Origin: a bacterium
Lineage (GTDB): Bacteria > Cyanobacteriota > Vampirovibrionia > Gastranaerophilales > JBAXKC01
Reading direction: 5' to 3'
NCBI GenBank assembly: GCA_037137535.1
Contig: JBAXKC010000009.1
Span: 26,871 to 90,870 of the forward strand
DNA length: 64,000 nt
Shown here: one piece after another, positions 18,740-28,850 of the stretch
Position numbering within the stretch: position 1 is the stretch's first letter
Layout: each line of letters starts with the position of its first letter
The notes under the pieces: generated by a model
Seen by the model: the letters and a program-made list of their open reading frames with translations, nothing else
What the model was told of the DNA's origin: nothing
Databases searched by the model: none
Position numbers and translations under genes: made by a program

Positions 18740-19624
18740 CTAAATCTCCTTATCAGGCATTTTCAGCATAACAACACCATTCATAATAACCATTTCATCT
18801 TTATTCAAATAAGGAATTCCAGTTGAACTCCCGTAAAGACCTTTAGCTTCATCTGTTAAAACAGGTTCCGCTTCTTTTTCAGTAATAAGTTTTCCATTAT
18901 TAAGTTTGGAAAAATCCAAAAATAAATTTTCTGATTTTTTATTGTAAGGGTCATGAATAATTATATTATTAGGATTATAATTTTGCCCATTAAAACCATA
19001 TCCAACAGCAGTTACCCAGTGTCCGTACTGCTTAGTATAAACAGGAGTACCATCAACCGAAAGATTTTTTTTATAAATCCCTAAATTAAGTAAAACCATA
19101 CCTTTAGCTTCTATTGAATCCTTTATCTTTGCTAGATCAGGACACATAGCCACAACCCCATATTTGCCGCCTGGTCTGATTCCTTGATATTCTATTTTAT
19201 ATCCTCTATAACCTTTATCAGAAATAAACTTATCTAGTCCTTCGCATAAATCTTTAGTTGACGTACCAATTGGGGCTGGCTTAGTCTTAAAATAACAAGC
19301 AAGTTCATTAATTAAAGCAGATTTATTCTTACTATATAATTTTTTATAACCGTTATTACTTAACCAAACTATTGCATTAGCTGCACAATAAGGTCCACAA
19401 TGAGATTCTGAATGTTCTTTATTTTGCCACTGTTTAAAATTAGGGATTTTACTAAGTCGCTCTACAAAAAATAATTTACTTTTAAAGTTAATTACATCGT
19501 TATGCAATGATGGCTTTAACTTTAAAGACGAACTATTCACATTATTAATAGAGCATTGAGGGTTTATTTTTATGATTGTTCTATTAGATTTTATTCCTAA
19601 ATATTGATTTAGAGAGTTTAACAT
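18740..19624 (-). CDS. Papain-fold cysteine peptidase (C39-like), orphan
   Basis: Cys-His-Asp order: HCGPYCAAN, GHWVTAVGY, IIHDPY. Confidence 0.65.
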   Translation of the reverse strand: MLNSLNQYLGIKSNRTIIKINPQCSINNVNSSSLKLKPSLHNDVINFKSKLFFVERLSKIPNFKQWQNKEHSESHCGPYCAANAIVWLSNNGYKKLYSKNKSALINELACYFKTKPAPIGTSTKDLCEGLDKFISDKGYRGYKIEYQGIRPGGKYGVVAMCPDLAKIKDSIEAKGMVLLNLGIYKKNLSVDGTPVYTKQYGHWVTAVGYGFNGQNYNPNNIIIHDPYNKKSENLFLDFSKLNNGKLITEKEAEPVLTDEAKGLYGSSTGIPYLNKDEMVIMNGVVMLKMPDKEI

Positions 19625-19718
19625 TTAAATAATTCCTAAAAGCAGTCTAATAAATTTAAGTATTAATCTATTTAATTATTGCTTAAAAATTTTCTTGATT
19701 ATTAATTTTCCAAACTAA

Positions 19719-20110
19719 AATGAGATTCATGCTAGTTTAGAACCAACTAAATTCAAATTACTTCTTTTTAAAGAAAGTCTACTTAATGACGATAGATTCG
19801 GCTTTAATTTCCATTTACATGATAAAAAAAACGTCAACTCGCAAGAGCAGGACTAAAAGTAAATTGTTTAAAAAAAATTTAAAATATAGTTCACTCGATA
19901 ATAGAGAGTGATAAATGTGTTTTTGGAACATGTGAAAAAATATTTAATGCAATTATTGGTAACGGTTATAATTTTAAAGTTAATAATGAAAAACAAACTG
20001 TTTTAAAAATTAATACTGATAGTTTGTTCTCTAATAATAATTTAATGGAAGCAACTATAAAACGTGATAATCAAATTTTAGCCGAAACCTCAATTAAGAA
20101 TACTAGATAA
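19719..20110 (+). pseudogene. Possible decayed gene fragments
   Basis: Two stop-free stretches in different frames (19719-19856 and 19883-20110) lacking a start at their 5' ends, in very AT-rich DNA. Confidence 0.3.
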
Positions 20111-20222
20111 AAAATATGTAAAGTCTACAGCTAATTTTCTAAAAAAGCTTTTAAACCTATGTATGAAAAGCTAAGTTTGTAATTGAGCTAGTATTTTAAC
20201 TTTTAAATCATTGTATTAATAA

Positions 20223-20263: not shown

Positions 20264-21373
20264 TTAACACAAAGCTAATTCTTTCTCTTGAGCCGTCATC
20301 TTTCGCCTTCTTATCAAATCAACAAAAGCCTCGAGTCTTGTTACAAAACCTGCTTTACCCATCTGCTCATCAAGAACTAAGGATAAAATAGGAATATCAC
20401 GCTCACTTCTGACATTTGGCATAATGTTCTGCGACATTATTTCAGGCATGCAGGTAAAAGGTAAAAGGTGAACTACCCCATCCCTGTTGTCTTCAGAAGC
20501 ACTTACCGCATCACCGATAGATTCAATTGAATCACCGCCAATATCTCTTTTCAAAAAGGATTTAGCAAATCTTTCAGCAATTTCGCCATGTGTTTCTTCT
20601 CTTAAAAAAGAAGGGAAGAGAAAAGAATTTATCCATTCACCTAAGTTGACTTTTCTATGGACGTGAACGCCTAATTTCCCGAGTTCTTTTTCTACTTCCA
20701 TATTAGAAAATTGATCAAGAACTACAAAAAATTCACCAGTTAAATCAACATGCAAAACTTCTCTTTTTTCATCAATCGGAGTAGTTTTAATTTCAGCAAG
20801 ACCAAATTCAAGAGCCTTTTTGCACTGTTTATAGGTAAGGGCTTCATCAATTTTCTTCAATGCTCGATTATAACGAATATCGGCCGAACCTGTTTTAATT
20901 TCTCTAGCTCTATAATAAGCCAAAGCTGCATCAAACTTGTCCATAACCTTAACTTTTGTTATAGCAATATTTATTGAGCGAATTAAATCAAATGGATTAC
21001 CATTACCGGTTGCTCTTTTGAATTTGGTAAACATTTCCTTTAATTTACCTTTATACAAATCCAGATTAATGAATTCGACTTCATAACCTAAATCTGTCAA
21101 AGCACTTCTAGCACCATCACTATATTGTCCAAGCCTACATATACCAGGACTGTCAATCATCATAATTGCTTCAGCACCGTTTTCAATAGCTTCAATATAG
21201 TTGCCGAGAACAAGTTTATAAGGCAAGCATATCGCTTCAGGACTATTTCTTGTTCCCAGAGATAGAGTTCTTTTATTTGTATATGGCGGAACTACTAAAT
21301 CTGCGCCCAGTACCCTCATCGCTCCCGAAAGAGCAATATGCAGGTTTCCCATATGAGGAAATGATACTTTCAT
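20264..21373 (-). CDS. 2-hydroxyacyl-CoA dehydratase-like / CoA protein activase-related Fe-S subunit
   Basis: MKVSFPHMG, CLPYK, GICRLG, GEFF, PFTCMPE, DEQxGxAGxxTRLEAF; ATG 21373 behind GAGGT. Confidence 0.8.
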   Translation of the reverse strand: MKVSFPHMGNLHIALSGAMRVLGADLVVPPYTNKRTLSLGTRNSPEAICLPYKLVLGNYIEAIENGAEAIMMIDSPGICRLGQYSDGARSALTDLGYEVEFINLDLYKGKLKEMFTKFKRATGNGNPFDLIRSINIAITKVKVMDKFDAALAYYRAREIKTGSADIRYNRALKKIDEALTYKQCKKALEFGLAEIKTTPIDEKREVLHVDLTGEFFVVLDQFSNMEVEKELGKLGVHVHRKVNLGEWINSFLFPSFLREETHGEIAERFAKSFLKRDIGGDSIESIGDAVSASEDNRDGVVHLLPFTCMPEIMSQNIMPNVRSERDIPILSLVLDEQMGKAGFVTRLEAFVDLIRRRKMTAQEKELALC

Positions 21374-21403
21374 AGTTACCTCGATTGACAAATCATAGCT
21401 AAA

Positions 21404-22459
21404 TTAAACTTTTTCATAATTCTCGCTAAATTCGTTTCCGTGAACATTAAGATCCATGATCTTATCTAGTTTTTCAACAATTGTTGAACGTTTCTTTCTG
21501 TGTAACATATCTGTAAACGCTTCAATTCTTGTTACAAAGCCAGCTTCTCCTGTATGCTCATCAATTGTAAGGTTAAGAAGAGGCTTTTTAAGTCTTTTTG
21601 CATAACGTGTCATACGCTCAACCATTAAGGAATCAGGTCCACAACCAAATGCGGTTATTGTAATAAGACCATCTATATTATTATCTTTTAAGAAATGACC
21701 CGCTGCGCCAGTCATTTCATATTCATTAGCCCAGTATAAATTTGTTTCAAGGTTATTTATACCTGCTGCCATTTGTTCGAGAGTAAGATTTTCAGGAACA
21801 AACGCTTTAACATTATATTGTTTAAGTTTTTCAAGAACTTTCATACTTACCTGTTCGTCATAAAGGTTATAGCCATGAGCTACAATACCGATATTAGTAA
21901 CATAGTCTGTTTCTTCCTGATCAAACTCAACAGTTCCTTCAACAGCACGTTTCATAGCAACTCTAGGATCAACACCGCCTCTGGTCATTAGATTGTAGTT
22001 ATTCATACATTCCCAACCTGCTTTTGATGCTTTTTTGATAAGTTTTTTATCGGTAATTCCAAGAGGAGCAACTGATTCATAAAGATATTGGTATAATCCT
22101 TGATTTTTTTCTGATTTATCAAGAGTAGGCTCAATAAGCATAAAATCTTTTTTAACTACATTTCTGATTAAATCCGGTAATCCTCTGAGTTTGGAACAGT
22201 TATATACTTTTGGTGCTATTGATTGAATACTTGGTGAGTAAATCACGTCAACACCTTTTGATAAAAGATCTAAAACATGTCCTACATATACTTTTACAGG
22301 AAGACAAGTTTCTGAAACGACTAATGCACTACCATTTCCAACCAATTTTTTTGTAGTTTTAGCTGATAATACAACTTCCATTCCAAGTTCATTAAAGAAA
22401 CCGTGCCAAAACGGATAATATGAATAATAGCCTAACGCTCTAGGTATACCAATTTTCAT
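21404..22459 (-). CDS. Acyl-CoA dehydratase activase-related protein (DUF2229-like)
   Basis: MKIGIPRALGYY, ETCLPVKVYVGH, YNCSK, AFGCGPDS, DEHTGEAGFVTRIEAF. Confidence 0.85.
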   Translation of the reverse strand: MKIGIPRALGYYSYYPFWHGFFNELGMEVVLSAKTTKKLVGNGSALVVSETCLPVKVYVGHVLDLLSKGVDVIYSPSIQSIAPKVYNCSKLRGLPDLIRNVVKKDFMLIEPTLDKSEKNQGLYQYLYESVAPLGITDKKLIKKASKAGWECMNNYNLMTRGGVDPRVAMKRAVEGTVEFDQEETDYVTNIGIVAHGYNLYDEQVSMKVLEKLKQYNVKAFVPENLTLEQMAAGINNLETNLYWANEYEMTGAAGHFLKDNNIDGLITITAFGCGPDSLMVERMTRYAKRLKKPLLNLTIDEHTGEAGFVTRIEAFTDMLHRKKRSTIVEKLDKIMDLNVHGNEFSENYEKV

Positions 22460-22482
22460 AGATGTTTACTCCTTCTCAAAGT

Positions 22483-23607
22483 TTAGATTGCTACTGCTGA
22501 TCTTTTTCTTCGTCTTATAAGATCAACGAATGCCTCAAGTCTGGTTACTAGTCCTGCTCTACCGGTTTGTTCATCCATAGAAAGAGAAATAACCGGAATA
22601 CTTTCATTTTTACTTACATGTGGAAGTATATTTTGACTTACTACTTCAGGGTTACAATTGAAAGGACCAATATGAACAACACCGTCAATGCCTATTCTTG
22701 AAGCATGTACCGTATCGCCGATTGATTCTACACAATCACCGCCAATTGCTCTGGTCATATAAGTTCCTGAATATCTCATAGCTTTTTGTCTATGAGATTC
22801 TTTTTTATGTAACCACTTAGGTAGCAAAATGTTATTAGTCCAATCTGAAAGCATTACTTGCCTTTCAACTTCAACTCCGAGATAACCGAGTTCTTTTTCT
22901 ATCTCCATATTTGTAAACGGATCTAAAAGAACAAAGAATTCCCCGGTTAGGTAGACTTTAATAATCTCCCTGTCCTTGTCTATAGGAATCTGTTGAAATG
23001 CTTTAAGTGCTTTTTCTGTAGCTTGTTTAACCGTTCTTACCCTGTTAGCGTTCTCAATTTCTTTTAACGCTCTTTTATAAACTTTTTCAGAATCACCTTG
23101 TTTAATTTCTCTGGGGCGATAATGAAATAAGGCTCTTTCAACTGTATCCATAGCATCAAATTTGCTATGACCAAGCCTAAAGCCTTTAATTGCTTTTATA
23201 AAACTTTTGCAACCTGTTGCATAACTGAATTTTTTAATAATTTCAGAAATTTTACCTTTATAAAGGTTAAATACTACCATTTCGCAGTCATAGCCAAGCT
23301 CTTTAAGCTTAGCATCAGCTAAAGCAGCATAGTTACCTAATCTGCAACTTCCCGGAGCTTCAAACATTATTAAAGTGTTTGCCCCGGATTCAATAGCTTG
23401 AATATAGTTACCTAAGTTTAATTTATATGGTAAACAAACAGTTTCAACGCTGTGTCTTGTTCCAATTGACAATGTTTCTCTATTGTTTGGATCAGACAAT
23501 TGGATTTTAGCACCCATTGTCTGGAACATTGCCACTACGGGAATATGCGCATTTCCCATTCTAGGGAAAGAAACTACTCTTTCTTTTTCTTTAGTATTTT
23601 TACTCAT
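22483..23607 (-). CDS. 2-hydroxyacyl-CoA dehydratase-like Fe-S subunit, paralog of 20264-21373
   Basis: SFPRMG, CLPYK, GSCRLG, TGEFFVLLD, PFNCNPE, TRLEAFVDLIRRRK. Confidence 0.8.
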   Translation of the reverse strand: MSKNTKEKERVVSFPRMGNAHIPVVAMFQTMGAKIQLSDPNNRETLSIGTRHSVETVCLPYKLNLGNYIQAIESGANTLIMFEAPGSCRLGNYAALADAKLKELGYDCEMVVFNLYKGKISEIIKKFSYATGCKSFIKAIKGFRLGHSKFDAMDTVERALFHYRPREIKQGDSEKVYKRALKEIENANRVRTVKQATEKALKAFQQIPIDKDREIIKVYLTGEFFVLLDPFTNMEIEKELGYLGVEVERQVMLSDWTNNILLPKWLHKKESHRQKAMRYSGTYMTRAIGGDCVESIGDTVHASRIGIDGVVHIGPFNCNPEVVSQNILPHVSKNESIPVISLSMDEQTGRAGLVTRLEAFVDLIRRRKRSAVAI

Positions 23608-23609
23608 AG

Positions 23610-23816
23610 TTAATTTGCTCTCAGCTCCAAGTATTCTTTTGGTCCGCCATTTATTGCCTTTTCAGGACAAATTCTCCAACAGGTTTGACAATCTACACAT
23701 TCATTTGCATTAATTTGTAATTTTGCTGATTCCAGAACTGTAATTGCATCTACAGGACATTTGGAGACACATATTTTGCAACTTATGCAAGTATTTTGAT
23801 CTATCTGATGAGGCAT
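23610..23816 (-). CDS. 2x[4Fe-4S] ferredoxin
   Basis: Two CxxCxxCxxxCP motifs; AGGAG RBS. Confidence 0.92.
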   Translation of the reverse strand: MPHQIDQNTCISCKICVSKCPVDAITVLESAKLQINANECVDCQTCWRICPEKAINGGPKEYLELRAN

Positions 23817-23828
23817 TTCTTTAGCTCC

Positions 23829-25406
23829 TTATTTATTTGCAGTTACGGCTTCTTCAGCAATTTTTTGCATAGCTGAAAGGTCTTTTCCGCATGAACATCC
23901 GCCATGGCTTTCACATCCGCCATGAACTCCACCTTGCGGTACTTTACTGCTGCAAAGAATTTGTCTGTCATGATAATATTCGCCAGGTAATGGGAACAGT
24001 GTCATATAATAATCTTTTTGCCAATTATCGTCCATTAATTCTTTAACTTCTGCGGCATATTCGTCAATTTTTTCCATAATATCAGGTTTTGTTAAATAAT
24101 CTGCCGCACCTTCATGGGTTTCATAAGGCTTAAATTTTTCGTAGTAGCCTCTTAATACCCAAGGTCTGTCAACAATCATACAAGGTCTAAGCATATTACC
24201 GTCATAAGGGGCACCTTTTCTTACAGCTTCCATAAACGGAGCAGCAAGAGCTTCTGTAAGGGTAGAGGTTTTAATATTGTGAGTAGCAAGGTGAACAAAG
24301 GTACAAGGCTCAACGTCACCTTTAGCATTAACGTGAATATATTGTCTTCCACCAGCAATACAACCCATCATTTCAGGACCATCGCCCCAGAAATCAACGG
24401 TCATCATAGGAAGCGTATTTCTGGCATTATATACAGCCTGTTTAATATGCTCTCTTTGTTGCGCTGTAGGCATTAAAGTAGGATCAGGATCTTGTCCGAC
24501 AGGGACATAATGGAAGACCCACGTCCATAATGAACCTTTGTCAGATAACATTTTCATAAACTCATCGGATACAACTTCTTCAGCATTATCTTTAGTTGCA
24601 CAAAGGCTTGCACCAAAGAAAACGCCTGCTTCTTTAAGTTTATCCATTTTTTCCATAACTTTATCAAAAGCACCTTCGCCTCTTACAGCATCAGTAGCGT
24701 CTTTTAATCCACTTAAACTAAACATTGGAGCAATATTGCCCATTTTTTTAATTCTTGCAATTGTAGAATCTGTTAATAAAGAACCATTTGTAAATACTAA
24801 GAAAATACAATCCGGATATTGTTCGCAAAGATCAAGAAAATCTTTTCTGATAAACGGCTCACCACCAACAACAGGCATAATGTGCATACCCATTTCGTCT
24901 CTAGCTTCATCAAAAACTCTTTTCCATGTTTCTATAGGCAGATCTTCTTTTTGCTCATAGTTATCAGCCCAACAGCCTGCACATTTGTAATTACAGTTTT
25001 GTGTGATGCTTGATAATAAAACAGTAGGTGGATAAAATCCGTGTTTTTCTACGAAAGATGCTCTTTTTCTCTGATTATCGGCATAATAGCCATGAAAGAA
25101 AAAGTTAATTAAAAATTTATTTCTGCAATTCGGGTCAAGGTCATTAATAACCTTTTGCCACCAGGCTAAATGCGGATGATCTGTTTCAAAAAGCCATCTC
25201 ATTCTTTTTGCATGGCGAACTGATCCTTCAGAGCCTGCAACCATTTCAAACAGCTTAGTTAATAGTATTAAATTATTTTTACTTGAAGTTCCAATTAAAT
25301 TGATTGCTTGCCCGAGAACAAATTCTTGTCCTTTAAGCTTAAGCTGGTCAATATAACCTTTACCGCTTCTCTTCTTCCACATAATATCCTGGGGTAAAAC
25401 TCTCAT
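23829..25406 (-). CDS. Radical SAM protein with SPASM/Twitch-like C-terminal domain
   Basis: CNYKCAGC, GGEP, FTNGS, GCIAGG...GDVEPC...RPC; AGGAG RBS. Confidence 0.92.
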   Translation of the reverse strand: MRVLPQDIMWKKRSGKGYIDQLKLKGQEFVLGQAINLIGTSSKNNLILLTKLFEMVAGSEGSVRHAKRMRWLFETDHPHLAWWQKVINDLDPNCRNKFLINFFFHGYYADNQRKRASFVEKHGFYPPTVLLSSITQNCNYKCAGCWADNYEQKEDLPIETWKRVFDEARDEMGMHIMPVVGGEPFIRKDFLDLCEQYPDCIFLVFTNGSLLTDSTIARIKKMGNIAPMFSLSGLKDATDAVRGEGAFDKVMEKMDKLKEAGVFFGASLCATKDNAEEVVSDEFMKMLSDKGSLWTWVFHYVPVGQDPDPTLMPTAQQREHIKQAVYNARNTLPMMTVDFWGDGPEMMGCIAGGRQYIHVNAKGDVEPCTFVHLATHNIKTSTLTEALAAPFMEAVRKGAPYDGNMLRPCMIVDRPWVLRGYYEKFKPYETHEGAADYLTKPDIMEKIDEYAAEVKELMDDNWQKDYYMTLFPLPGEYYHDRQILCSSKVPQGGVHGGCESHGGCSCGKDLSAMQKIAEEAVTANK

Positions 25407-25761
25407 TATTTTCTCCTTTGAGATTTTGTCAAGTCTTATGACTTAAATTGCAATTATTACATATCATATTTCTTACATAAAAAAACATGAAAATACAGAG
25501 AAATGCTTAAAAACCGGCAAATTGTAAACTAATGTAAAATAAACACTTGTTTCACGATATTGCTAATTATCAAGCACTTTAGTAGATAGAGCTTTATTCT
25601 TATTTAAAATGATTATAAATAGCAAGTCTTTACCGATAACAGAAGTCTTTAAGCATAAATAATTGTATTTTAGCTATATACTGTACAATAATGATTGTTA
25701 ATTTATTTATCATGCTTATTTATTCTTACAAATACGAATGATAAGAAAATAATTTAGGACA

Positions 25762-25798
25762 AAAAAATCCTGATAAAATATATTTATCAGGATTTTTT
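25762..25798 (-). terminator. Terminator after MCP-hemerythrin
   Basis: AAAAAATCCTGATAAA-loop-TTTATCAGGATTTTTT. Confidence 0.75.
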
Positions 25799-25815
25799 AT
25801 TAATTTAAACTGAAT

Positions 25816-26220
25816 TTAAAGTTTATCTTTAAGGAAAGCTCCAAGTTCTTTATCAACTTTAGAAACATGTGTTACTAACCATGTAGCAATGATTTGGTTT
25901 ACCTGAATAATATATTTAATATTTATTCCTTCAGCTTCAATTTTATTTTTAACATCAACAAACTGAGCAATGAAAGCTTCATGTTTTGCTTTATGCTCCG
26001 TATATTTAGGATAATTGTATTTTTGCTGAAGAGCTTCTTCTTGTGAAAAATGGTCAATTACATAATTGCCTAAGAAGTCGATCATATCTTTAATTACTTC
26101 TTTACTTTGTCCTGTATTTGAAGCTTCAGAAAGTTTGTTAACCATGTCAAACAGCTCTTTATGCTGATCGTCAATTGTACCTACACCAACTAATAAATCA
26201 TCTTTCCACTTTAAAAGCAT
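25816..26220 (-). CDS. Bacteriohemerythrin
   Basis: IDDQHKELF, HFSQEE, EHKAKH, WLVTHVSKVD di-iron ligands. Confidence 0.93.
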   Translation of the reverse strand: MLLKWKDDLLVGVGTIDDQHKELFDMVNKLSEASNTGQSKEVIKDMIDFLGNYVIDHFSQEEALQQKYNYPKYTEHKAKHEAFIAQFVDVKNKIEAEGINIKYIIQVNQIIATWLVTHVSKVDKELGAFLKDKL

Positions 26221-26264: not shown

Positions 26265-28070
26265 CTACATCATAAACGACCCTTGCAATAATTTAAGCAT
26301 TATTGCCATATTCGCAAGATTTTGAGCATTTTCGTTTACGTTTTGCATTCCATCCATATGTTCAGAGCAAATACTTGATATTTCTTCCGCTTGAGCGGCT
26401 ATTTCCTCTACAATGGCCATGTTGCTATCCATTTGATCTACGATACTATTTGAATTAGTCGATACTTCTTTTATTTCTTGACTCATAAATTGAAACTGCA
26501 AACTTATAGTTGATGAAGAGTCAAGAATCTCTTTCAAAATAGATTCAATATCTTTTATGACAAAAACTCCTTCTTTTACCATTGAAAGACTCTCTTGCAT
26601 CTCTAAGTTGGCAGAGTTTGCATGATTCTGAATAGACTTAATCATATCTGTAATTTCATTACTGGCGCTAGAGGATTGATCAGCCAGCTTTTTAACTTCT
26701 TGAGCAACAACAGAAAAACCTTTGCCGAATTTACCCGCTCTTGCTGCTTCAATAGAAGCATTTAAGGCTAACAGATTAGTTTGAGTTGCTATAGCTTTAA
26801 TAATTCCGGTTATTTTCTGAATACTTGTGCTTATATCATTCAACTGCTGAATATTTTTGGTAGTGACTGTAACTGCTGATTCTATTTTATTAATAGCAGC
26901 AACTGCAATATTAGATTGATTACTACCACTTCCTGACAAGGTTTCCATTTTTTTAGCCATTTCAACTATAGATTGAGAAGTTTCATATAAATTTTCAATA
27001 GTTTGATTAAGCTTATTTACCGTTTCAAAAGACTGAGTAATATTATAGGCTTGTTCAGTAGCTCCTTGAGCCAGTTGAGCTGTACTTTCCGCAGTTTGTT
27101 CAGCCCCCTGAAGACTTTGATCGGCAAGCTCTGTAAGATTTTCAGAACAAGTTCCAATCTCATCAGCAGATTCAATAAACTGTCCTATTAATTCTCTAAG
27201 ATTCATTACAGTTTTACGATAAGATACCGTAAGAACATTCGTTTCGTCTTCTGAATTAACTTCTTCTTCCTCAGGAAGGATAAAACAACCTTCGGATAAT
27301 TCATTCAAATGGTCATTTACTTTTGATATAGGACTAACTATCCTTTCAGCAAGTTTTGTCGAATAAATAAAAGCAGCTGTAATTGCACCTATAACTAAAA
27401 GTATAACAATCGGCATAAATATATGAAAAATAATATTCGAAAAAACAAAACTAAATCGTTCTTTTTTTATGTTATGTTTATTGATTTGGTCCAACAGATT
27501 AATTTTTTTTGAGCTTAATGGAACTAACTCTTTGAAATAAATTGCTTCCGCTTTATCAAATTCAGATTGTTTTACTAAGTCTATTATCTGAGATTCTTTT
27601 TCAGTCAAGACCATTTCTATTTCTGACAAAGCACTTGTTTTAATTTTTTCATATTTATCAAGCTTAATATTTTGGAAATAAGTATCAACGTTTAAATTTT
27701 GATTATTTAAGTTTTTTATTTCTTTAGAAAGATACTTATTATTATCTTTGGATAATTTAATTAATACTATTAAATCATTAATGGTTTTTTGTTCAATACA
27801 CCTTGCATCATTAATTTTTAATTCTATTGCAGAATAATCTTTATAAAAAGCCTCCATTCCTTCATGGCTGCCTATTGTAGTTAATATACAAATAAAGCTA
27901 ACTGCAACTAAAGTTACTATTAAGGCACCAGATAATAAGTAAATCTTACCTTTTATTGTACGTTTTAACTCATTGATTAGTGGCAATACATCTTTGTGTG
28001 AAAAATTTCTAACTAAAGATATTTTTTCACGAAGAAGGTTAAACAACTTCGTGACATCTTTAAAGTTCAT
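26265..28070 (-). CDS. Methyl-accepting chemotaxis protein
   Basis: Two TM helices flanking a sensor domain; [20 protein letters not shown] signalling hairpin. Confidence 0.93.
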
Positions 28071-28313: not shown

Positions 28314-28850
28314 TTATTTTAGAATACTATATTTACACCCACAATAAGATTGCCTATATAAGTTATTCTCTTTGGAGATAATAAGGCTTTTTTTAAACCC
28401 CTCCTGCTTTTTAAAATTTTCTTCTATAAACGCAATATCATGTTTTTTTGCAAATTCTGAGCCTATTTCATTTATTATTCTTGAGTTTTTATGAGGGCTT
28501 ACGGTTAGAACTGTCGTAAAGGCATCAAATCCGTTACTTTTGGCAAAAATAGCTGCTAGCTCCAGCCTTATCTTAAAGCAGAGAGTACACCTTTCTCCTC
28601 CCTCTTTTTCATTTTTTAAACTTAATGTTAAATCTTCCCATTCTAAAAAATTTGCATCTTGAATATAATAATCTATGTCATTTTTATTCATATATTCTTT
28701 AAATTCATTAAGTCTACGATTATATTCTTCAACAGGAAAAATATTGGGATTATAAAAGTATCCCTTAACTAAAAAGCCCTCATCAGAGAGCTTTTTATAT
28801 GGATATGTAGAGCATGGAGCGCAACAAGAATGAACAAGTATCTTTTTCAT
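28314..28850 (-). CDS. queH: Epoxyqueuosine reductase QueH
   Basis: HSCCAPCS, FYNPNI, EGGERCTLC, YRQSYCGC. Confidence 0.9.
   Translation of the reverse strand: MKKILVHSCCAPCSTYPYKKLSDEGFLVKGYFYNPNIFPVEEYNRRLNEFKEYMNKNDIDYYIQDANFLEWEDLTLSLKNEKEGGERCTLCFKIRLELAAIFAKSNGFDAFTTVLTVSPHKNSRIINEIGSEFAKKHDIAFIEENFKKQEGFKKSLIISKENNLYRQSYCGCKYSILK

Follow-up and report, generated by a model that had tools for sequence, protein, structure and literature searches.

Organisation and expression of the operon

The 64,000-nucleotide stretch of DNA analysed here, which as a whole is called the window and to whose positions all coordinates refer, contains a five-gene operon on its minus strand. The genes encode, in order, a radical SAM (S-adenosylmethionine) enzyme (rSAM; 23829..25406, 525 amino acids), a ferredoxin (23610..23816, 68 amino acids), and three proteins denoted D1 (22483..23607, 374 amino acids), D2 (21404..22459, 351 amino acids) and D3 (20264..21391, 375 amino acids). 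The evidence described below indicates that this is probably a lipid-remodelling operon. The intergenic gaps, from rSAM to D3, are 12, 2, 23 and 12 nucleotides in the list of open reading frames (ORFs), and the gap between D2 and D3 widens to 30 nucleotides if translation of D3 begins at an ATG seven codons further in. The D3 stop codon is immediately followed by a terminator-like hairpin of 14 pairs and a T run (20256-20225, minus strand); it is a consensus match, and the region as a whole has no excess of such sites (3, versus 3.3 in shuffled sequences). A first-pass annotation, made from the sequence alone, had proposed five co-oriented genes with small gaps and a single terminator, with the motif DExxGxAGxVTRxEAF at the C-termini of the last three products. 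This early observation is confirmed, since the ORFs, the Pfam domains and the C-terminal motif, seen both in the translations and in the alignment, are as described there. The ferredoxin, annotated as a 2x[4Fe-4S] protein, has two CxxCxxCxxxCP motifs and matches Fer4 dicluster families in Pfam, and the nearest database matches are named Candidatus Melainabacteria and Gastranaerophilales, in agreement with the cyanobacterial sister lineage that had been suggested.

The intergenic region upstream of the operon (25407..25815, minus strand) is the presumed promoter region, and we found no credible small ORF in it. A sigma-70-like match (11/12) at 25432-25405 is doubtful, as it overlaps the rSAM start codon; the number of sigma-70-like matches was 31, compared to 28.6 in shuffled sequences. 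Contigs from two RNA libraries of one sample, which is a possible source of this DNA, map to D3, D2, D1 and rSAM. One such contig (20247-21797) spans the D3/D2 junction, another (22405-22618) spans the D2/D1 junction, and both fit co-transcription. RNA contigs were absent on 18921-20204 and 25341-25661 and scarce on 23094-24056, although contigs cannot show transcript ends or absence of transcription. According to their labels, the public runs that contain this DNA are metagenomes from freshwater or lakes.

The radical SAM enzyme and the Mss family

The rSAM was analysed by Pfam and NCBIfam scans, an alignment of 16 family members, a tree and a structural model. It consists of an N-terminal helical domain, a CxxxCxxC core, a twitch/partial-SPASM region, and a Cys-rich C-terminal tail modelled with low confidence. 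The protein had been annotated as radical SAM/SPASM-like; the first half of this label stands (Radical_SAM, PF04055, 61 bits), whereas the SPASM match (PF13186, 20.9 bits) is below the cut-off of 21.5 bits. The SPASM motif comprises seven cysteines that bind two auxiliary clusters. This seven-cysteine pattern is absent from the window rSAM: in the alignment, C138, C142 and C145 of the core are invariant and, after the core, only C349, C368 (G363-x4-C368) and C409 are. Because only three cysteines are conserved after the core, the enzyme probably has a twitch-like domain that holds a single auxiliary cluster, not two. The tail (window 23829-23960, residues ~482-525), with the pattern C..GG.HGGCE..GGC.CGKDLSA, is modelled at pLDDT <50 and is kept only in the Melainabacteria clade of the family. 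In NCBIfam, no equivalog model came near its cut-off for any of the five operon proteins.

We scanned for the rSAM family using one genome per species and obtained at least 599 confirmed loci. The family was anchored to Mss (membrane-spanning lipid synthase) through the organism names of proteins, not through accessions. Aligned with the window rSAM, a 'radical SAM protein [Thermosediminibacter oceani]' (P0155) shows 39% identity over 439 residues (E 2e-112), and a 'MULTISPECIES: radical SAM protein [Thermoanaerobacter]' (P0244) shows 36% over 444 residues (E 4e-100). A Tepidanaerobacter member of the family (L041) retrieves P0155 together with Moorella proteins, and a Caldanaerobius member retrieves P0244 together with Caldanaerobacter proteins. 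The Mss sequences aligned in Fig. 4A of the published study come from the same genera, namely Thermoanaerobacter, Caldanaerobacter, Moorella and Thermosediminibacter (PMC13159169). The available part of that study defines Mss homologues by E<=1e-50 and at least 30% identity, reports them for the 'Cyanobacteria/Melainabacteria group' and, with Sahonero-Canavesi et al. 2022, names T. maritima Tmari_0825 and T. ethanolicus WP_129545148.1 as the tested Mss proteins (PMC13159169). The phylum lists given for Mss, as far as the available parts of the two papers go (PMC13159169, PMC11868695), match the phyla recovered in our family scan. Both comparisons, with P0244 and with P0155, fall within the published thresholds, these proteins being stand-ins known by organism name only. 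Thus, as judged by sequence against organism-named stand-ins, the window rSAM is probably an Mss homologue, and it belongs to a separate Melainabacteria clade.

The tree, computed with FastTree from 97 rows with neither a Thermotoga sequence nor an outgroup, contains two superclades, one composed of Bacillota, with the anchored proteins, and the other of mixed phyla. The window rSAM is found in a well-supported 21-row Melainabacteria clade within the mixed-phylum superclade. Two placements at odds with the taxonomic label represent either mis-binning or gene transfer: the rSAM of L019, from a contig filed as 'uncultured Muribaculaceae', nests within the gut Melainabacteria clade, and that of L084, from a contig of a metagenome-assembled genome of Methanocorpusculum, nests among Bacillota.

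The rSAM model (pLDDT 81.8) is most similar to the solved structures of SkfB, SuiB and anSME (Z 22-25), with CteB also among the nearest folds, and its matches in the ESM Atlas are generic radical SAM/SPASM clusters, mostly of Bacillota. Two candidate readings of the enzyme were rejected. A RiPP maturase was rejected because the two flanking intergenic regions, searched for precursor-peptide ORFs, contain only short, low-complexity ORFs of 20-42 amino acids. A Tes-like enzyme was rejected because GDGT-MAS is not among the best folds.

A putative split reductase and its linkage to the radical SAM gene

The D proteins have the domains of the PlsA/PlsR/Ger type that had been proposed for them, as judged by Pfam and by the published order of Ger modules. 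The scores for DUF2229 (PF09989) are 169.5 bits for D2, 43.5 bits for D1 and 33.1 bits for D3; D2 covers the whole profile, and D1 and D3 match it in two short stretches each. All three have an HGD-D (PF06050) tail, which spans only profile positions 247-342 of 342 and scores under the cut-off of 28.4 bits (D2, 27.3; D1, 24.7; D3, 20.3). D1 and D3 are 49% identical to each other, compared to about 19% between D2 and either of them. Thus, D2, a single-copy gene in this genome, resembles Red1 of PlsA, and D1 and D3 are two PlsR/Red2-like subunits, in terms of the Red1 and Red2 domains described in the available part of PMC12838417. The 'D-H' make-up of D2 and the 'D-D-H' make-up of D1 and D3 parallel the order BBD-H-DD-H of Ger, as given in the published material available. 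DUF2229 followed by HGD-D is present twice (Red1, Red2), and the two units are fused in the same order in the 723-amino-acid protein P0280, residues 350-698 of which match D1 (35% identity, E 6e-75). This protein is not isolated. At E<=1e-3, D2 has 2919 relatives among 1.84 billion representatives; the best 150 of these are 134-770 amino acids long and mostly solitary proteins of 300-380 amino acids, but about 15 of the 150 are 670-770 amino acids long with the D2 part N-terminal, i.e., D2-D1 fusions.

In HadBC, three cysteines bind the iron-sulfur cluster. Three cysteines are likewise invariant in each D type (C52, C88 and C273 in D2), suggesting that D1, D2 and D3 could bind Fe-S clusters. 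The description of the D proteins as three related Fe-S proteins therefore stands as to their relatedness, given the DUF2229/HGD-D domains and the common C-terminal motif, and is a prediction from conserved cysteines as to the clusters. The D2 model (pLDDT 90.7) has its best PDB matches in HadB/C, DCCP, BzdN/O and MbdO/N (Foldseek, E 1e-7 to 1e-4, TM about 0.5, 380-400 columns, whole length). These matches rank clearly above unrelated folds, at 10-15% identity in the fold alignments. A phmmer search of the PDB with D2 yielded nothing at E<=1, and a profile search matched DCCP (E 2.5e-6) and HadC (E 1.6e-4, 64 residues only). The first-pass annotation had asked whether the subunits group with HgdAB-type dehydratases. 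They do not: the D proteins have neither a full-length HGD-D match nor a grouping with HgdAB, HadBC, LcdAB or FldBC subunits and, as their sequence matches are limited to the last ~65 residues, they stand apart from the fermentative dehydratases.

The ferredoxin is likely to be a low-potential electron carrier for the rSAM and/or the reductase; its gene lies between rSAM and D1 in L095-L102 and is absent in L103-L105 and L107. A stand-alone activase of 335 amino acids is encoded on another contig of the same genome, C11 (TIGR00241, 185.9 bits, cut-off 125.4). It is the only full activase match in the genome, the other two being weak (a 249-amino-acid ORF, 32.4 bits) or partial, and a profile search of the genome's contigs revealed no fused PlsA. 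At C11:9598-11786 (G000, L006), the activase gene adjoins an NMO-family gene resembling the enoyl-ACP reductase FabK at a score far below the cut-off (175.7 versus 453 bits). The genome also encodes a solitary D1-type paralogue on C14, to which D3 is 61% and D1 44% identical, and a more distant relative on C1.

Across the order Gastranaerophilales (Melainabacteria), to which the genome belongs, D2 was detected in 150 of the 151 genomes and the activase family in 143 of the 151 (134 of the 135 genomes of good quality), and the C14-type D1 paralogue was present in 41/41 genomes of a subset. Because these three components, each encoded alone, are near-universal, D2, one D1-type subunit and the activase constitute a core trait of the order. 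The rSAM gene, found in 52/151 genomes, is accessory. The core D2 gene stands alone in most gut genomes (L125, L127, L128, L130, L132). The genome G001 has the gene order VKOR/DsbA-QueH-D1-D2 and no radical SAM gene, and four relatives have VKOR-QueH-rSAM-Fdx-D1-D2-D3. Given these gene orders, the rSAM and ferredoxin (Fdx) genes were placed before an older D locus, and the 'triple' of D genes is partly an ancestral housekeeping locus, because D2 is near-universal without rSAM. In the window, a methyl-accepting chemotaxis (MCP) gene (26265-28070) and a hemerythrin gene (25816-26220), both recognised by Pfam, lie between QueH (28314-28850) and rSAM; they are possibly an inserted oxygen-sensing taxis pair. 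Since rSAM/Fdx, MCP and hemerythrin genes have been inserted at this spot in different genomes, it is tolerant of insertions. Downstream of the operon, a 294-amino-acid ORF (18740-19624) has a weak match to Peptidase_C39_2 (22.8 bits, cut-off 24).

The linkage of rSAM to the D genes is supported by several independent lines of evidence, and these indicate that it is functional. First, among relatives with at least 74% identity, 13 loci extend far enough downstream to be assessed, and 12 of them retain the order rSAM-(Fdx)-D1-D2, which is therefore not a chance arrangement. D3 follows D2 in 8 of the 10 extended loci (families f4, f5, f6 and f10). The co-conservation of rSAM that the first-pass annotation had called for is seen in close relatives and does not extend to the order. 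Second, the number of D1-type genes goes along with the presence of rSAM: in the 41-genome subset, two or more were found in 25/25 genomes with rSAM versus 2/16 without it, and exactly one in the other 14/16. Third, in family f3, a second D2 copy is present in 28/29 genomes with rSAM versus 0/88 without it. This copy belongs to an island in gut genomes (L129:7733-17638, L018:1922-12137) with the gene order D2'-PHP-D1'-small radical SAM-Poly_export/SLBB-rSAM-PAP2 and a diacylglycerol (DAG) kinase gene beside it, and the rSAM of gut Gastranaerophilaceae is situated between the PAP2 and DAG-kinase genes. The island occurs only in those f3 genomes that have rSAM and adjoins sugar-transferase genes; its small radical SAM protein has a weak match to DUF3463, and the DAG-kinase gene is located after PAP2 in L129 and on the other side, on the opposite strand, in L018.

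Fourth, the two families are linked in other phyla. For example, in two loci of Deltaproteobacteria/Syntrophaceae (L023, L026), the order GT2-rSAM-D-D-activase is followed by genes for a B12-rSAM, an LpxL-type acyltransferase, an acyl carrier protein (ACP), a FabD-like protein, a 4HBT thioesterase and another B12-rSAM. The cluster is a candidate for the synthesis of lipids that are methylated, ether-linked or spanning. The cluster occupies 8290-20118 in L023 and 9258-20348 in L026, and a deacetylase gene may precede GT2; a ketoacyl synthase gene lies upstream in L023, and an amine-oxidase-type flavoprotein gene lies inside the cluster in L026. L059 has GT2-rSAM-D-D, running to the end of the contig. 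In an Oscillospiraceae locus, rSAM is divergent from patatin and a PlsA/PlsR-like set, with DegV alongside. Overall, a lipid gene is found within two genes of a family member in 26 of the 70 loci outside Melainabacteria (23 without MMPL transporters), a count for which there is no matched background rate; on two of the 70 contigs there is no space for a neighbour gene. These neighbours are LpxL-type acyltransferase, ACP, FabD-like, PlsX, PlsC-type acyltransferase, CDP-alcohol phosphatidyltransferase, DegV, patatin, DAG kinase and DUF2229 genes.

Other arrangements were observed as well. A GWF2_37_15-like Melainabacteria genome (G029; L013/L108 and L022) has two rSAM copies: the one nearest to that of the window (74-76% identity) is followed by a DUF5131 gene and no D gene, and the more distant one (61%) lies between a small divergent radical SAM gene upstream and a D1-type gene downstream. 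In five Actinomycetota loci (L036-L040), rSAM occupies a housekeeping position, between the threonyl-tRNA synthetase and IF3-L20 genes, with no lipid gene nearby.

Proposed function, alternatives and related systems

We propose that these genes form a modular operon for anaerobic remodelling of membrane lipids, a specific reading on which we are evenly divided. The universal base would be a split relative of the PlsA/PlsR/Ger reductase that comprises the Red1-like D2, the Red2-like C14 paralogue and the BcrAD/HgdC-type ATPase activase encoded on C11. Around the single D2, the operon would add the Mss-family rSAM, the ferredoxin and two extra Red2-like paralogues, D1 and D3. The ferredoxin would donate low-potential electrons, and the rSAM would abstract hydrogen from lipid acyl tails, which would create a C-C bond or modify the tails in a related way, as published for Mss. 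D2 might then pair with D1 or D3 in place of its housekeeping partner, and this swap would retarget an ATP-driven reduction/dehydration of the ketyl-radical type (in PlsA/Ger, the conversion of an ester to a vinyl or alkyl ether) towards the modified lipid, so that the D2/D1 or D2/D3 pair reduces either an ester or a different oxygenated carbon in that lipid. The domains, folds and cysteines, the conservation of the operon, the D2-D1 fusions, the co-inheritance of rSAM with extra D1-type genes and the lipid-gene neighbourhoods are observed; the substrates, products, subunit pairing and use of the activase in trans are inferred, the chemistry by analogy with published activities and the D2-D1 pairing from the natural fusions.

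Several observations weigh against this proposal. The Mss link is made through organism names, without an accession match to Tmari_0825 or WP_129545148.1, and the window rSAM is placed in the superclade other than that of the anchored Bacillota proteins, in a tree that lacks Thermotoga. The nearest rSAM folds are peptide- and sugar-modifying SPASM/twitch enzymes, with GDGT-MAS only 30th among the fold matches (Z 17). As judged by their sequences, the D proteins do not appear to be orthologous to fused PlsA. None of the best 150 D2 relatives reaches 1000 amino acids, which leaves no room for activase domains; a PlsA-like B-D protein with a fused activase (L058, Oscillospiraceae) scores only 63 bits with D2, compared to 175-460 bits within the D2 subfamily; and the PF01869 (BcrAD_BadFG) domain is absent from all five operon proteins in Pfam, whereas BBD, with its two fused activase domains, is described in the published material available as conserved in all alkyl-ether producers. 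Because the relatives are too short and the match to L058 is weak, D1, D2 and D3 belong to an activase-less branch; the role of activase-less PlsA homologues 'remains unclear', according to the available part of PMC13274423. Furthermore, D2 occurs in 99 genomes without rSAM and must therefore have a function of its own. A DUF2229 gene was found within about 8 kb of rSAM in only 9 of the 80 fetched loci, of which only 42 have 5 kb on both sides, and about 61 of the 70 foreign loci have no DUF2229 gene in reach. Glycan/EPS neighbours (GT2, DUF3473 deacetylase, Poly_export, Bac_transf) are frequent. Finally, the RNA-library contigs cannot prove a single transcript, and the related genomes in our counts are not independent samples. 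The lipid-operon interpretation in the first-pass annotation is partly supported: the rSAM family, the DUF2229 and HGD-D make-up, the separation from HgdAB-type dehydratases and the recurrent linkage speak for it, and the anchoring of the Mss link by organism names, the placement in the other superclade, the missing fused activase domains and the near-universal D2 without rSAM speak against it.

The rarity of rSAM in comparison with D2, the gene order of G001 and the insertions seen at this spot, both in the four relatives and in the window (MCP and hemerythrin), raise the question of whether D1-D2(-D3) is an ancestral housekeeping reductase locus, upstream of which rSAM and ferredoxin merely landed and act on something unrelated. 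We consider this unlikely. The same two families are linked in different arrangements in at least three phyla. In the gut island, rSAM comes with its own second D2 and D1 copies, extra D1-type copies track rSAM in the 41-genome subset, and gaps of 2-23 nucleotides fit translational coupling.

The glycan genes around the family suggest, with a probability that we rate lower still, that rSAM and the reductase modify the acyl moiety of a glycolipid or of the lipid anchor of a surface polysaccharide, instead of an ether or membrane-spanning lipid. GT2 is located directly upstream of rSAM in eight foreign loci (L026, L059, L028, L029, L030, L051, L081 and L087), often together with the DUF3473 deacetylase; the gut Melainabacteria island has RgpF, Poly_export/SLBB, Bac_transf and GT1 genes; and the rSAM of L131 adjoins Bac_transf and Acyl_transf_3. 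The window operon, conversely, has no glycosyltransferase, and the only family members whose activity has been published convert ordinary membrane fatty acids to diabolic-type diacids, as stated in the available part of PMC13159169. That the D proteins form a fermentative 2-hydroxyacyl-CoA dehydratase, a benzoyl-CoA-reductase-like enzyme or a DCCP-like small-molecule reductase, with rSAM as a cofactor or peptide maturase, is very improbable: the D2 fold, the DCCP and HadC profile matches and the resemblance of rSAM to the peptide maturases SkfB, SuiB and CteB fit this explanation, but the sequence likeness to HAD/BCR/DCCP is confined to the last ~65 residues (10-15% identity in fold alignments), DUF2229 is the hallmark of the PlsA/Ger branch, the operon has no CoA-transferase, acyl-CoA or activase genes, no credible precursor-peptide ORF was found in the flanks, and the neighbours of the rSAM family are lipid genes.

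A broader view can be put forward with low confidence. The cassette of an Mss-type rSAM, one or more dedicated PlsR-like paralogues and a ferredoxin may be a plug-in that redirects the universal, ATP-driven split reductase to tail-coupled lipids and thus the unit for making ether-linked membrane-spanning (brGDGT-like) lipids in anaerobic bacteria, with the Deltaproteobacteria/Syntrophaceae version (L023/L026) as a near-complete brGDGT cluster that includes the long-sought methylases. In that case, Melainabacteria of freshwater and the gut would make spanning lipids without having been recognised as producers, which we hold to be a doubtful prospect. Branched tetraether lipids find wide use as proxies for temperature and pH. 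Which anaerobes produce them and how Mss cooperates with Ger are described as open questions in the available part of PMC13274423. Both enzyme families are known and the genomic co-occurrence of mss and ger has been published, as seen in the parts of the literature available; these parts mention no operon or gene cluster that joins mss and ger. Likewise, the searched portions of the literature mention neither a link of the two families in an operon nor a split form that lacks the activase, a base system near-universal in the order or a paralogue that tracks rSAM. The present results connect the two enzyme families, both physically and in evolution, in three phyla, and they give a first functional lead for the activase-less PlsA homologues. 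A further prediction is that the non-photosynthetic sister lineage of cyanobacteria has unusual membrane lipids. The set of five genes and one activase is compact and directly testable.

Among the known systems, the archaeal tetraether synthase Tes/GDGT-MAS (PDB 7tom, 7tol) is a radical SAM protein proposed to join lipid tails. Its fold matches the window rSAM at Z 16-17 across 256 residues, among them those of the model's N-terminal part, but it ranks below about 29 other entries at 14-15% identity, and the window rSAM family, with its three post-core cysteines, probably has one auxiliary cluster rather than two. HadBC/HgdAB, BzdNO/MbdON and DCCP have the same overall fold as D2 by Foldseek and share the region of the C-terminal motif, and here, too, there are three conserved cysteines per subunit; the D proteins differ in having DUF2229 instead of a full-length HGD-D and in lacking a CoA-related context.

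PlsA/PlsR of C. perfringens and Ger of T. maritima (Tmari_0479) and D. alkenivorans consist of two DUF2229 and HGD-D reduction/dehydration modules, which appear in the same order here. The BCR/HAD fold of these enzymes is shared by the predicted structure of D2, and they depend on an activase of the BcrAD/HgdC type such as the one encoded in the window genome. The difference is that PlsA/PlsR and Ger have fused activase domains, whereas the operon has none and a single-domain activase is encoded on another contig. In addition, the modules in the window genome are separate genes, with three Red2-type paralogues per one Red1-type, and the likeness of D2 to a fused PlsA-like protein is limited to the 63 bits given above.

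With Mss, the window rSAM has in common a COG0535-type radical SAM domain, the CxxxCxxC core and a SPASM/twitch-like region, and its 36-39% identity to the Thermoanaerobacter and T. oceani members extends over nearly the full length of these shorter proteins. The phylum range of the family is that published for Mss homologues in the material available, and the neighbours of the family are lipid genes. The window rSAM belongs to the other superclade than the anchored Bacillota proteins, is 60-80 residues longer, due to an N-terminal extension and the Cys-rich C-terminal tail, and is encoded in an operon with a ferredoxin and DUF2229 proteins.

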